Shown: positions 21,642 through 25,625 of the stretch, one piece after another
How the letters are laid out: each line of letters opens with the position of its first letter
Position numbering within the stretch: the first letter of the stretch is position 1
Made by a program: the position numbers and the translations under genes
Origin: Syntrophales bacterium
GTDB taxonomy: Bacteria > Desulfobacterota > Syntrophia > Syntrophales > UBA2192
Assembly: GCA_036725345.1 (NCBI GenBank)
Contig: DAIMEJ010000004.1
Coordinates: 63,735 to 127,734 of the forward strand
Direction: 5' to 3'
Length of the DNA: 64,000 bases
The notes under the pieces: model-generated
Database searches by the model: none
Seen by the model: the letters and a program-made list of their open reading frames with translations, nothing else
What the model was told of the DNA's origin: nothing

Positions 21642-23237
21642 TCACGCCTTACGATGATTGTGGTTCAGGCGGTCCTTGCTCAGCTTGTACTGGAAACTGT
21701 CCACCAGGGCCTGCCAGCTCGCCTCGATGACGCTTTCCGACACACCGACGGTGCTCCAGATTTCATTGGGGTCCTGAGACTCGATGAGAACCCTCACCTT
21801 GGCGGCTGTGCCTTCGCTGCCGTCGAGGATGTTGACCTTGAAATCGACAAGGTGCATCTCGTCGATTTCTGGGTAGAAGGTTCGCAGCGCCTTCCGGAGG
21901 GCGTTGTCGAGCGCGTTGATGGGGCCGTTGCCTTCGGCCGCCGTGATCTCCACCTCGTCCCCCACCCAGATCTTGATCATGGCCTGGGCGTGAGAGGGGT
22001 TCTCCTCGTCCTTTTCGTTGATCACGCGGAACAGTTCGAGTTCAAAGGGTTCCTCGAACTGGCCCGTGGCCTTCTTGATGAGAAGAGCGAGCGATCCGTC
22101 GGCTGCATCGAAGGTATAACCCTGGTCCTCCATCTGCTTGATGACCTGGACGATCTTCCTGCTGGCCGTTCTGTCCCGGCCCAGTGAAAGGCCCAACTCC
22201 CTGGCCTTGTACTCGATGGTACTTTTCCCCGAAAGGTCCGAGGCCAGGACCCTCCTCTGGTTCCCCACGCGGGCCGGGTCGATATGCTCATAAGCGGCGG
22301 GGTTTTTCCGAACGGCGTCCACGTGGACACCCCCCTTGTGGGCAAAAGCGCTCCTACCCACGAAGGGTCTCGAGTTCAGTGGCGGGATATTGGCGATGTC
22401 ACCGACGAAACGGGAGAGATTCGTCAGCTGCCGGATCGACGCCTCTGCCAGGCACTTTTTCTGCATTTTCAACTGGAGATTGGCGATGATGGTAACCAGG
22501 TCGGCGTTGCCGCAGCGTTCCCCGAAACCGTTGATGGTCCCCTGCACCATTCTGGCACCGGCCGACACGGCAGCCAGCGTGTTGGCCACGGCAAGGCCGC
22601 CGTCATTATGGGTATGAATGCCGAGCAGCCCCCGTGGGACGATATCGGACATTTCCAGGGTGACCCGGTGGACCTCCTCGGGGAGGGACCCTCCGTTGGT
22701 GTCGCAAAGAACGATCATGTCCGCGCCCGCCGAAAGGGCTGATCGGATGGTTTCTTTTGCGTAAGCGGGGTTTGCCCTGTAGCCATCGAAGAAATGCTCC
22801 GCATCGTAAATGAGCTCCTTGCCCCGGTCCTTGAGAAAACGGACGGTGTCCCCGATCATGGCCAGGTTCTCCTTGAGGGGCACTTTGAGGATTTCGTGGA
22901 CGTGGAGGTCCCAGGTTTTTCCGAAGATCGTCACCACGGGTGTGGCGGCATCGAGAAGGGCCAGCAGGTTCGGGCACTCCCGCGGCTTGATGCCTGCTTT
23001 CCTCGTGCTCCCGAAGGCCGACAGCTTCCCGTTCTTGAATGTATTCTCCCGGGCAAGCTCGAAGAAGCGCATGTCCTTCGGGTTCGAGCCCGGCCATCCC
23101 CCCTCGATGTAGTGGAACCCGGCGTCATCCAGCCGCTGGGCGATCCGCAGCTTCTCCTCTGCGGAAAAATTGACCTGCTCGCCCTGGGTCCCGTCTCTCA
23201 AGGTGGTGTCATAGATGAGTACGTCCCATTTCTTCAT
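21642..23237 (-). CDS. cimA: citramalate synthase (LeuA-related, CimA type)
   Basis: IYDTTLRDGTQGEQVNFS...YIEGGWPGSNPKD, ~530 aa with a C-terminal LeuA-dimer-like domain. The second ATG (23237) is preferred because GGGGGA lies 9 nt upstream. The distinction between CimA and LeuA is family-level inference. Confidence 0.75.
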   Translation of the reverse strand: MKKWDVLIYDTTLRDGTQGEQVNFSAEEKLRIAQRLDDAGFHYIEGGWPGSNPKDMRFFELARENTFKNGKLSAFGSTRKAGIKPRECPNLLALLDAATPVVTIFGKTWDLHVHEILKVPLKENLAMIGDTVRFLKDRGKELIYDAEHFFDGYRANPAYAKETIRSALSAGADMIVLCDTNGGSLPEEVHRVTLEMSDIVPRGLLGIHTHNDGGLAVANTLAAVSAGARMVQGTINGFGERCGNADLVTIIANLQLKMQKKCLAEASIRQLTNLSRFVGDIANIPPLNSRPFVGRSAFAHKGGVHVDAVRKNPAAYEHIDPARVGNQRRVLASDLSGKSTIEYKARELGLSLGRDRTASRKIVQVIKQMEDQGYTFDAADGSLALLIKKATGQFEEPFELELFRVINEKDEENPSHAQAMIKIWVGDEVEITAAEGNGPINALDNALRKALRTFYPEIDEMHLVDFKVNILDGSEGTAAKVRVLIESQDPNEIWSTVGVSESVIEASWQALVDSFQYKLSKDRLNHNHRKA

Positions 23238-23260
23238 GATGTTCATTCCCCCATAAATTG

Positions 23261-23294
23261 AAAATCCGTTACCGGGTGACCGGATAACGGATTT
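23261..23294 (-). terminator. attenuator terminator in the cimA leader
   Basis: Minus strand AAAUCCGUUAUCCGG-ucac-CCGGUAACGGAUUU (14 bp, one bulged U) followed by UCAAUUU, ending about 10 nt before the cimA RBS. Confidence 0.7.
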
Positions 23295-23342
23295 CTCAGC
23301 AGGTTTATGTCCTCTCCATTATTCCATCATCGGTCCCCTACG

Positions 23343-23411
23343 TCATCCAGACGTATCCTGTATGACGATAATAATGATGGGCCGAATGATGAGAATAATG
23401 TCCCGATACAT
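23343..23411 (-). CDS. Ile-rich leader peptide (22 aa) of the cimA-leuCDB operon
   Basis: Hand translation: ATG TAT CGG GAC ATT ATT CTC ATC ATT CGG CCC ATC ATT ATT ATC GTC ATA CAG GAT ACG TCT GGA TGA = MYRDIILIIRPIIIIVIQDTSG (9 Ile). Too short for the ORF track. Confidence 0.6.
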   Translation of the reverse strand: MYRDIILIIRPIIIIVIQDTSG

Positions 23412-23449
23412 GGATTTTATAGTGTATTTCCCCGTTTTCGGTGATATGT

Positions 23450-23478
23450 ATGCTAGTGATCCCGCCGGGTTTTGTCAA
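23450..23478 (-). promoter_or_regulatory. candidate sigma70-type promoter for the cimA leader
   Basis: Minus strand TTGACA (23478-23473), 17 nt spacer, TAGCAT (23455-23450). Confidence 0.5.
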
Positions 23479-23587
23479 CTAAAAAATGGGGTCCCCCGTA
23501 TTGATACCCGTAAAACGGCTCAACCTAAAGATCCTCTGAAGGGCACCGATAAAAAGTTTGTACATAACATGAGCGAAAGGTGAGGTT

Positions 23588-23953
23588 ATGACATCGATGA
23601 ATAAAATCAGTATCGCTTTGACCGTTTTATCCGTCTTCCTTCTCTCGACGGCACTCCCCGCCCCCTCCGACGCGGAAGATGTGTCATTCCGTTGTGGTAA
23701 CGAAACCGTCTCCGTCGGCGACTCCTCGTACGTGGTCCTTAAGGCCTGCGGTGAGCCGGCTCGAAAGGACAAAACAGGCAAGGCCGGTGTGGCAAAGAGT
23801 GGTACGACCGCCACCGGTGAGAAGGCCGTCAAGGGTGCATCAGGCCGCGTTGAGAAATGGTACTACGACGAAGGCTACGGGGGCTACGTCTACATCCTTA
23901 CCTTCCAGGGCAGCACCCTCAGGAAAATCGAAAAGGGCGGACGGGGCAGATAG
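23588..23953 (+). CDS. DUF2845-like secreted protein
   Basis: 121 aa. Signal peptide, two Cys (FRCGNETVSVGDSSYVVLKACGEP) and a C-terminal WYYDEGYGGYVYILTFQG pattern resembling DUF2845. SD AAGGTGAGG upstream. Confidence 0.55.
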   Translation: MTSMNKISIALTVLSVFLLSTALPAPSDAEDVSFRCGNETVSVGDSSYVVLKACGEPARKDKTGKAGVAKSGTTATGEKAVKGASGRVEKWYYDEGYGGYVYILTFQGSTLRKIEKGGRGR

Positions 23954-23972: not shown

Positions 23973-25625
23973 TCAAGTCCCGATACGGCCTGCATGCTCC
24001 CGCATACGCCGGCTCCGCGCGCGGCCCACGGCCAGAGAGACGACACCGAAAAACCCCAGCGCCATGGATAATTCCACGCCCAGGTGAAGCGCCACGAAAG
24101 CGAAGCCTATCAGGGGCAGCAGAGAAAGCCTGACAGCCGCCTTCAAGGCTTCTTGACCGGAAATGAAACGGGCAACGGGAGGCGAGAGATCTTCGTAGAG
24201 TCGCACCATGAAGTTCCCCGCTGCATGACCGCGAAGATACTCGTCCCTGAAATCCCTCAGGATCTGCACGTGTGGCTCCATCGGTGAGCCGAAGGCCGCC
24301 GTTGCGATGAAGCACCCGCCGCCTCCGCCGCCGCTGCTGCCTGGCTTAGACACGGGCGGGGTTTCAGCGCTTTGCGTGATGGTATAATCTGACCCCGCTA
24401 TGGCAAGAGAGCCTATCCTTGTCGACGCAGTTGTATTTGCTGATACACTGTAGCTTATCTGTCCGTTCCCAGTGCCACTCGATCCGGAGGTCAGTGTAAT
24501 CCAGTCGTCATTGCTGGTGGCGGTCCATTTGCAGTCAGCGCCGCAATTCAAAATGGCTGATCCTTCTGAGGCATTTGCCGAAACGGAAGCACCCGTGGAC
24601 TGCAGGGCATATGAGCATGTGCCAGCGAAAGACACCCCGAGCGTCTGGAATTTTCTTGCGGTCGTGATTGGCAGCATGGAGCAACCATAGTTCATCCGCA
24701 TCTTCATTCGAAATAACCCATTCGGACGATCTCCCCCCGACGTTCCCCAACTGTTCAAAACGATCCAGTAATGGTTGGCAGGATCGGCATCATCGTCGTT
24801 ATAACCGATAATGATGACCGCGTGACCCCCTCCCTCCGAAACATCATAACTCGTTCCGCAATAGGTATCGGGATTCCAGGTTGCTGTTTCCGTCTGATGG
24901 TCCCAGAAATCGTAGAATTCATTCCACGCAGCCTGATTGGGGAGATAATACGAAAACCAAACCCCCTTACCCTGGTTGAGAATTGATTTGATGTTGAGAA
25001 TCGCGTCGTCCTGGCCGACGCCAGTCGTCTCTATCGTCTGAACCACCAGGTCCGAAGAAAAGGGGTAATTCGTGGGGTACCAGGAGACGGAGCCACAGGC
25101 GCTGTCGCACGTCCCTTCGCCGTCGACGTACGCTGCCCCCGGATTGGTCCAGGGCACCGCGAAACCCCGGCTGTTATAGAAATCGACAAACATTGTGAGG
25201 TTACCGCCCTCGCATGCGCAGTCACCCGTCTTACAGGCATCGAGGAACTGGACGGAAAGGCGATCCTTGATCGCAAGCTGTGACTGGAGTGCGAGTTCCA
25301 GAACACCCGTCCCCGCCCAGGCCCAGCAGTTACCGCATTGCCCCTGGTTTCTCTGGGCAGGAACATATTGAATATTATCCAGGAGACTGAGAGACGAACC
25401 GACCTGCTGGTCTGCCGCTATCACAAGCCCGGACCGCACCCAGATGTCGATTTGCGCCCTCACAGCATTCTCGTAGTCTCTCTCCCAACGGTTCAGGGTC
25501 AGCGCATCCGGGCGCATCAAGGCGGGCCGGGATTTAGGCATCTCCTGGGAGAACGCGCCGGACGGAGAGCCTGCGATCAAGACAAAGGCGAGAAGGAGGG
25601 CGGCGGCAATCCTCGTTTTCTTCAT
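23973..25625 (-). CDS. secreted papain-family (C1) cysteine peptidase with Ig/BACON-like domain and C-terminal membrane-anchor region
   Basis: 550 aa. Signal peptide. Catalytic Cys in [10 protein letters not shown], His in [11 protein letters not shown], Asn/Trp in LNSWG. Then a beta-rich domain ([13 protein letters not shown]...[12 protein letters not shown]), a Gly run, a [11 protein letters not shown] motif and a hydrophobic tail. Confidence 0.8.

Follow-up and report, generated by a model that had tools for sequence, protein, structure and literature searches.

In Escherichia coli and Salmonella, expression of the ilvGMEDA operon is governed by a transcription attenuator with the leader peptide IlvL (MTALLRVISLVVISVVVIIIPPCGAALGRGKA), and ilvBN is preceded by an attenuator with the leader peptide IvbL. 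Both consist of a short open reading frame (ORF) with runs of isoleucine, leucine and valine codons, overlapping alternative stems, and an intrinsic terminator just before the branched-chain amino acid genes. The same arrangement was found upstream of a cimA-leuC-leuD-leuB (cimA-leuCDB) operon in a 64,000 nt stretch of DNA (assembly GCA_036725345.1, contig DAIMEJ010000004.1, positions 63,735 to 127,734; hereafter the window), which originates from an uncultured Syntrophales bacterium of anaerobic-digester metagenomes, known only from metagenomes. This leader is very probably a leader-peptide (ribosome-mediated) transcription attenuator, which couples expression of cimA-leuCDB to charged tRNA-Ile. 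As judged from its sequence, it is a genuine classical attenuator with a well-known mechanism, and belongs to what appears to be a new sequence family in Desulfobacterota.

The cimA leader shares with the E. coli trp and leu attenuators the four-segment logic, in which the regulatory codons lie in segment 1 and the ribosome decides between the 2:3 and 3:4 pairings, as well as termination as the default when the leader is untranslated. It differs from them in the amino acid sensed and in the number of regulatory codons, with nine Ile codons in two runs, compared to two Trp codons in trp and four Leu codons in leu. The stop codon of the window leader is part of an inner hairpin and precedes segment 2 by 9 nt, whereas the longer leaders of relatives described below resemble trp in having theirs at the 3′ end of this segment. 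The cimA leader is not similar in sequence to the ilvGMEDA and ilvBN leaders and matches no Rfam leader family, the first gene is cimA whereas E. coli is without the citramalate route, and the window leader is Ile-only. Furthermore, one Ile-codon string recurs, as a copy or as its complement, in all four segments, with the result that the terminator stem itself is sequence-conserved across orders. The long-type leaders of Desulfobacterota, which have an Ile run, a Leu run and Val codons, are functional analogues of the ilvGMEDA and ilvBN leaders, and both groups are thought to respond multivalently.

Outside the Enterobacteria, devices of this type in branched-chain operons were mostly first found by comparative genomics, as with the leader-peptide attenuators of ilvBNC and leuA in Actinobacteria (PMC1262725), the ilvBNC leader-peptide attenuator of Corynebacterium (PMC11857589, PMC10272879) and the Leu-rich attenuator peptide of the Staphylococcus aureus ilv-leu operon (PMC5794164). 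These leaders are from other phyla, are unrelated in sequence and have ilvB, leuA or ilvD as first gene, and none of them belongs to cimA or to Desulfobacterota. T-box leaders also place a terminator/antiterminator switch before amino acid genes and respond to tRNA charging, but they read the uncharged tRNA directly via a specifier loop and the T-box sequence, whereas in the cimA leader no such element was detected and there is a conserved frame instead. No leader peptide of cimA or of Desulfobacterota was found in a full-text literature search, with a broad attenuator survey (PubMed 20198868) as possible prior report; branched-chain amino acids are not treated by Rodionov et al. 2004 (PMC545781).

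Elements and alternative folds of the cimA leader

The leader is located in the intergenic region 23587-23247, between a divergent DUF2845 gene and cimA, and contains the following elements.

23450-23478, minus strand: sigma-70-type promoter, with TTGACA at 23478-23473, a 17-nt spacer and TAGCAT at 23455-23450 (sequence reading and consensus scan)
ATG 23411 to TGA 23345-23343, minus strand: leader ORF of 22 codons plus stop, encoding the peptide MYRDIILIIRPIIIIVIQDTSG
23382-23400, minus strand: segment 1, CAUUAUUCUCAUCAUUCGG, the first Ile-codon run (codons 4-10), partner of segment 2 (inverted repeats)
23341-23367, minus strand: inner hairpin CGUCAUACAGG-AUACG-UCUGGAUGACG, spanning codons 16-22 and the UGA stop (minimum free energy (MFE) fold and inverted repeat)
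23316-23338, minus strand: segment 2, the antiterminator strand, with CCGAUGAUGGAAUAAUGG at 23333-23316, partner of segment 1 or of the terminator 5′ arm
23262-23294, minus strand: terminator hairpin, with segment 3 at 23294-23280, the loop UCAC at 23279-23276 and segment 4 at 23275-23262
23253-23264, minus strand: U-rich tail UUUUCAAUUUAU, of which the first three U are inside the stem

The promoter matched the consensus at 10 of 12 positions in a scan of the window, and would place the transcription start near 23443. Its −35 sequence TTGACA is unchanged in the alignment of the window with three close variants, and TTGACA with a 17-nt spacer is likewise present in the more distant loci L002, L006, L007 and L008. 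The leader peptide contains nine Ile (codons 5, 6, 8, 9, 12-15 and 17), one Leu and one Val, and is unique in the window for its Ile content, since the maximum number of Ile per 13-residue stretch was nine in the leader ORF and at most four in every other ORF (703 ORFs of 10-60 codons, both strands). ORF and hairpin pattern scans detected neither a second Ile-rich mini-ORF nor a second such hairpin elsewhere in the window.

The terminator stem consists of 14 bp with one bulged U (hairpin −19.0 kcal/mol) and ends approximately 10 nt before the Shine-Dalgarno (SD) sequence of cimA, while segment 2 can pair with the terminator 5′ arm over 11-13 bp, with two G-U pairs and one bulged C. The duplex energies of the competing pairings are −20.1 (1:2), −18.4 (2:3) and −21.2 kcal/mol (3:4). 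The MFE fold of 23445-23240 (−67.6 kcal/mol) combines the 1:2 helix, the inner hairpin and the terminator, with z = −4.7, and none of 200 shuffled sequences folded as stably; the inner hairpin is a possible pause hairpin. An earlier annotation made without database searches (the sequence-only reading) had proposed the promoter, the 22-codon ORF and its amino acid composition, the complementarity of 23333-23316 to the Ile codons at 23400-23382, and a 14-bp hairpin with a U-rich tract before the cimA ribosome-binding site, and all of these were recovered at the positions given above, with the bulged U as addition and the proposed complementarity appearing as the 1:2 helix of the MFE fold. The folding of 23445-23240, suggested there as a check, thus returned the 1:2 helix and the terminator, and the alternative structure appeared on ribosome-masked folding. 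The pairing of segment 2 with the terminator arm, also part of that reading, is present, but does not exceed chance on the window sequence alone.

The effect of ribosome position was predicted by folding the nascent transcript (23443-23276, with segment 4 not yet made) while a 29-nt ribosome footprint was held unpaired. With the A site at codons 6-16, the terminator 5′ arm was sequestered by segment 2 (23333-23323), and with the A site at codon 5 its partners were 23326-23315. When there was no ribosome, or when the ribosome was at codon 17 or beyond or at the stop, the 1:2 helix re-formed and segment 3 was free for the terminator. The antiterminator was thus formed only for A-site codons 5-16, which supports the 1:2, 2:3, 3:4 logic put forward in the sequence-only reading. 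In the ribosome-free fold of the nascent transcript, a stretch of the 5′ untranslated region (5′ UTR; ACCGAAAACGG, 23431-23441) pairs with the terminator 5′ arm, which may be an MFE artefact or a further alternative pairing.

In the mechanism that we propose, transcription would begin approximately 30 nt upstream of the 22-codon ORF. When Ile-tRNA is plentiful, the ribosome would reach the UGA stop, and segment 2 would be partly covered or, after release of the ribosome, re-paired with segment 1, such that the 3:4 terminator can form and transcription would end just before the cimA ribosome-binding site. An untranslated leader would have the same outcome. When Ile-tRNA is scarce, the ribosome would stall on Ile codons 5-17 and cover segment 1, and segment 2 would pair with the terminator 5′ arm before segment 4 exists, allowing RNA polymerase to enter cimA. 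The analysis establishes the sequence elements, their conservation, their occurrence before branched-chain operons and the predicted alternative folds. That the ORF is translated, that ribosomes stall within it, that transcription is terminated at the hairpin, and that the switch responds to isoleucine is inferred.

The leader shows every computationally testable defining feature of a classical leader-peptide attenuator. It has its own promoter and, before the structural genes, a short ORF in which codons for the end product are clustered (nine of the 22 are Ile), and the operon makes the amino acid that would be sensed, via cimA and leuC, leuD and leuB. Its 1:2, 2:3 and 3:4 pairings exclude one another, albeit with weak single-sequence significance, and the regulatory codons are located in or beside segment 1. 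Directly before the first structural gene there is an intrinsic terminator, for which a simple scanner made no call. Finally, the position of the ribosome decides the fold in silico.

Conservation of the leader in close and distant relatives

The leader of the window was aligned with three close variants, L110, of which the CimA protein is 91% identical, and L204 and L205, which were obtained via members of the 90% protein cluster of the window CimA. Their leader peptides are as follows.

Window: MYRDIILIIRPIIIIVIQDTSG
L110: MIRNIISIIRPIIIIVIQDTSG
L204: MIRNIVSIIRPIIIIIIQDTSG
L205: MIRNIISIIQAIIIIVIQDTSG

The ATG, frame and stop are kept in all four, as is every Ile position, with Ile/Val swaps only, while positions 2, 4, 7, 10 and 11 vary. 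Base changes in segments 1 and 2 are from A to G opposite U, which leaves a wobble pair on the sense strand only; the exception is L205, which has a re-paired GGCC:GGCC. The sequence-only reading had suggested examining orthologous leaders for conservation of the mini-ORF and hairpins as a check, and both are kept in these close variants and in more than 100 distant loci.

Within the best 80 cimA loci from species-representative genomes, the element was present in seven (CimA 63-66% identical), all metagenome-assembled genomes labelled Syntrophales, Desulfatiglandales, Desulfobacteraceae and related groups. These seven loci all have an Ile/Leu/Val-rich mini-ORF approximately 160-310 nt upstream of cimA, and they share a near-identical terminator sequence (AAAUCCGUUAUCAGG-loop-CCUGAUAACGGAUUUUUUU), which was unexpected. 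The element was absent from the 73 other genome cimA loci (Firmicutes, Nitrospirota, Omnitrophota, Geobacteraceae and others). In such attenuator-free loci (L009-L080, e.g. L039-L078), cimA is commonly located directly after an aspartokinase gene with a C-terminal ACT domain (...MISTSEIKISCVID...), and in several Desulfobacterales without the attenuator it follows a gene ending in ...EMWRAGAAVRSLRPENRK; no Ile/Leu/Val leader was found within 3 kb in these attenuator-free cimA loci.

A search pattern of 30 nt representing the hairpin only, without segments 1 and 2, retrieved at least 119 metagenome loci, and the hairpin-bearing set comprises at least 127 loci with the consensus CCGTTATC[A/C]GG...CC[T/G]G[A/G]TAACGG. 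Among the 127 matches listed, the gene directly downstream is cimA on the same strand in 96, with its start 7-154 nt away, and cimA with ambiguous orientation in four; the others have leuA (14), genes for acyl-CoA dehydrogenase and electron transfer flavoprotein (ETF) (three), ilvB (one), citrate synthase (one) and other genes (four), with four sequences too short to tell. Offsets of 301 and 496 nt obtained with tblastn are matches beginning at CimA residue 109 or 152, and are not gene starts. Nearly all of the 127 matches listed have an Ile/Leu/Val-rich ORF starting with ATG and ending 19-50 nt before the hairpin, and the hairpin sequence is kept across loci with CimA only 56-73% identical.

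The leaders come in two forms, a long form of 37-42 codons and a short form of 19-31 codons, which differ by approximately 45 nt, with the region between the segments variable or deleted. In the long form, for example MKNVVNNIIVIISATGILLPLLLLVVVTLERPGLIMT, an Ile run (AUUAUCGUCAUUAUCAG) constitutes segment 1, an inner covarying hairpin encodes a Leu run, and the last codons (CCUGAUAAUGAC, encoding 'GLIMT') constitute segment 2, which is complementary to both segment 1 and the terminator arm CCGUUAUCAGG. The stop codon at the 3′ end of segment 2 means that a ribosome finishing the leader would mask segment 2. Short-form leaders, including that of the window, are Ile-dominated (e.g. MKNIIIRPIIIIEGIISPIKIGDLIMV and MKSSIGIIIPIIIDIIGIRPGGVGG) and share the outer 1:2 helix and the terminator of the long form, and the Ile-only leader would be a shortened variant of the longer Ile+Leu+Val leader. 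Neither this relationship nor the membership in a large sequence-conserved family had been noticed in the sequence-only reading. In the window, the 3′ arm of the inner hairpin (UCUGGAUGACG, 23341-23351), which contains the UGA stop, is also complementary to the terminator 5′ arm (10 bp, two G-U) and similar to segment 2 of the long form together with its stop codon, CCUGAUAAUGACGUAG. The window leader may represent a contraction of the long form, in which the second Ile run is coupled to an additional potential antiterminator strand.

Pairing was assessed in the 64 long-type leaders among the matches listed. Analysis with RNAalifold returned the inner hairpin and the terminator, but not 1:2, and the 1:2 and 2:3 pairings were therefore counted explicitly. 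The 1:2 positions were 89.5% paired, compared to 13-55% with the partner slid, and the 2:3 positions 92% paired, compared to 17-46% with the partner slid. Compensatory changes were observed in the inner hairpin of the long-type leaders, located at the same position as that of the window. One variable terminator pair is U-A in 36 and U-G in 28 of the 64 leaders, a variation compatible with pairing only in RNA of the sense strand. Compared to the family consensus, the window shows concordant changes in all four segments, from CAG/CUG/CAGG/CCUG to CGG/CCG/CCGG/CCGG. In a subgroup formed by L008, L119 and L145, segment 3 is CCGUUACCAGG or CCGUUGCCAGG with matching segments 1 and 2 (AUUACCAG / UUGGUAAU), while segment 4 keeps GAUAAC. 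This creates a C-A mismatch, with which the terminator is weak (−12 kcal/mol for L008), and the balance in these loci appears shifted towards read-through.

The codon content of the leaders follows the content of the operon. Ile-only leaders precede cimA-leuC-leuD-leuB without leuA (window, L110, L084, L120, L136 and L177) or cimA alone (L184, L192 and L099). In at least 23 loci, an Ile+Leu+Val leader is located before cimA-leuA-leuC-leuD-(ilvB or leuB). Among the matches listed, leaders before leuA contain 12% Ile, 21% Leu and 15% Val, and those before cimA contain 20% Ile, 18% Leu and 8% Val. Such a match between codons and operon is a prediction of an amino-acid-sensing leader, and is not predicted by a protein operator or a micro-protein. 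At three loci (L105:246-4756, L155 and L159), an attenuator with the leader MRINGTYQNIAIIIRATGIILFPLLSLLIIRSKVPGLIM and the conserved hairpin is located directly before an acyl-CoA dehydrogenase gene, followed by the ETF beta and alpha genes. The best NCBIfam match of the dehydrogenase is the acryloyl-CoA reductase AcrC, below cut-off. As these genes are non-biosynthetic, this location suggests that branched-chain amino acids control acyl-CoA metabolism at these loci. At L139:4333-5959, a bona fide citrate synthase gene (NF004126, 616.6 bits, cut-off 505) is preceded by the hairpin and by a degenerate leader, MEYSHRNLINIIWPAGVFAPPCPCPPVQVIRPGPPGLIM, which is poor in Ile, Leu and Val.

We consider it reasonably probable, with clearly less confidence than for the attenuator itself, that the window leader is the Ile-only member of an undescribed, sequence-conserved attenuator family found at least in Syntrophales, Desulfatiglandales and Desulfobacterales, with segments built from one Ile-codon string (AUUAUCAG / CUGAUAAU), with a codon mix retuned to the operon, and with recruitment to acyl-CoA dehydrogenase/ETF and citrate synthase genes. 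Little is documented on how anaerobes regulate the citramalate route, and the leader provides a concrete, testable cis-element relevant to syntrophic and sulfate-reducing Desulfobacterota, which are genetically hard to study. The mechanism is unsurprising and the understanding of attenuation itself is unchanged, but the series of Ile-only, Ile+Leu+Val and Leu/Val-heavy leaders is a clean comparative illustration of attenuator retuning. The hairpin also offers an annotation handle, as the 30-nt pattern identified more than 100 starts of cimA, leuA and ilvB operons together with unannotated small ORFs.

Evidence against attenuation and rival explanations

Several observations weigh against attenuation at this locus. 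There is no canonical SD sequence 5-13 nt before the leader ATG, although GGGGAA is present approximately 18 nt upstream of the ATG in the window, and AGGGAA in L110. The terminator stem is bulged and its U tract is short and interrupted, and thus weaker than in relatives, which have 6-10 uninterrupted U. A simple terminator scan of the window missed the hairpin owing to the bulge and the interruptions in the U tract, and on inspection of these features the miss was rejected as a refutation of the terminator. In tests on the window sequence alone, the 2:3 pairing was not significant, with the best upstream duplex of the 15-nt terminator arm matched or beaten in 261 of 2000 dinucleotide shuffles, and the 1:2 pairing was borderline (94 of 2000 shuffles). 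Because these window-only tests are weak, the case rests on cross-sequence comparison; the statistical support would be moderate from the window alone, and the comparative evidence strong. The terminator stem itself is invariant in the family alignment by ascertainment and provides no covariation evidence, since the search pattern fixed segment 3, which makes covariation in both the terminator and 2:3 uninformative. Even when a ribosome is stalled on the leader, the terminator persists in the full-length MFE fold, and antitermination would hence have to be kinetic, as in classical systems. Finally, an Ile-only signal would also govern leuCDB, which is needed for leucine, and this is physiologically awkward unless there is basal read-through or a second copy.

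The preservation of the hairpin sequence at CimA identities of 56-73% is more than is usually seen in a plain terminator and is a typical property of operators, and the hairpin is a near-perfect inverted repeat in DNA. The palindromic hairpin and the two upstream copies of the same 8-11-mer could thus form a protein-binding site, bound as DNA by a dimeric transcription factor or as RNA by a regulator recognising the hairpin, with the Ile-rich ORF being incidental. We regard this as highly improbable in either form, as the sequence conservation is explained by a chain of complementarity to the Ile codons (AUUAUCAG / CUGAUAAU / GUUAUCAGG / CCUGAUAAC), and the wobble-type variation (U-A to U-G in 28/64, and A-U to G-U in 1:2 and 2:3) fits sense-strand RNA only. 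Moreover, the promoter is approximately 150-190 nt upstream of the site, a U run follows the site in every case, and the ORF is conserved in frame and in an Ile/Leu/Val content that matches the operon. It is marginally less probable again that the small ORF encodes a functional hydrophobic micro-protein, such as a membrane peptide, and that the RNA structures are an ordinary 5′ UTR and terminator without a sensing role. Long-type leaders such as MKNVVNNIIVIISATGILLPLLLLVVVTLERPGLIMT do resemble single transmembrane helices and are conserved, but the window-type peptide has only 22 residues, with Arg and Pro mid-peptide, and the peptides vary in length (19-42 aa) and sequence while the Ile/Leu/Val codon runs and their pairing partners are kept. 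Long-type peptides end in 'GLIMT' because the antiterminator sequence CCUGAUAAUGAC imposes these residues, and known leader peptides such as the E. coli IlvL are equally hydrophobic; a function in trans would in any case be compatible with attenuation.

Terminators combined with antiterminators are also the architecture of T-boxes and many riboswitches, and T-boxes control ilv-leu genes in many Firmicutes. A direct RNA sensor of uncharged tRNA or of a metabolite, for which translation of the leader would be irrelevant, nevertheless has a probability that we consider negligible. The sequence-only reading had pointed to a covariance model such as the T-box as something that could explain the leader differently, and a search of 23150-23650 with the Rfam 15 models gave no T-box (RF00230) or other match at E≤10 apart from sub-threshold noise (snoZ5, 20.1 bits vs 60; P9, 16.7 bits vs 43). 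Neither the T-box nor a rival model was detected when the whole window was searched at gathering score, or seven relatives at E≤0.05, and the T-box and the curated amino acid leader families (such as Leu, Thr, His, Trp and Phe) were rejected for lack of an Rfam match. All the checks named in the sequence-only reading that lend themselves to computation favoured the attenuator. There is also no conserved aptamer-like region, as the region between the segments is variable or deleted (the difference of approximately 45 nt between long and short leaders), and the conserved item is a reading frame with codon runs. An equally negligible probability is assigned to a chance ORF beside a constitutive or leftover terminator without any regulation. 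The weak single-sequence statistics for 2:3 and 1:2 and the missing leader SD sequence would fit such a view, but the Ile content of the ORF is without parallel in the window, the ORF is conserved near and far at a fixed position relative to the hairpin and the branched-chain amino acid genes, and it would be maladaptive to have a constitutive terminator separating an essential biosynthetic operon from its conserved promoter. A chance ORF is effectively refuted by the comparative data.

The cimA-leuCDB operon and neighbouring genes

The genes downstream of the leader, and its neighbour on the far side, are as follows.

21642-23246, minus strand: cimA, citramalate synthase (TIGR00977, 703.9 bits, cut-off 450)
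21625-20369, minus strand: leuC (TIGR02083, 635.7 bits, cut-off 610.65)
20264-19719, minus strand: leuD (subfamily model TIGR02087, 210.1 bits)
19722-18649, minus strand: leuB (NF002898, 525.7 bits, cut-off 393)
23588-23953, plus strand: divergent DUF2845 gene

The citramalate pathway is an established route to isoleucine, and its part in isoleucine synthesis in Geobacter is reportedly a subject of Risso et al. (2008, J Bacteriol). The cimA gene had been named as such from the sequence alone, and its score places it as a true citramalate synthase, followed by leuC, leuD and leuB. The leuD gene scored 208.7 bits with the equivalog model TIGR02084, which is under the cut-off of 245.85 for that model. 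The gene order cimA-leuC-leuD-leuB is repeated in L110, L084, L120 and L136, and neither leuA nor ilvB was found elsewhere in the window. Two in-frame ATG codons are available as cimA start, at 23246 (534 aa; ORF listing and JGI calls) and at 23237 (531 aa; NCBI records). The latter is likely to be the true start and ATG 23246 less likely, since ATG 23237 has the better SD spacing, being located 10 nt after GGGGGA (23252-23247), and 531 aa is also the length of the cluster members (90% identity cluster) at NCBI.

The product of the next minus-strand gene upstream (23973-25625) is 550 aa long and has a CFI-box-CTERM domain (NF041770, 87.5 bits), and precomputed Pfam marks also indicate peptidase C1 and BACON-like regions in it; this gene is unrelated to the attenuator.

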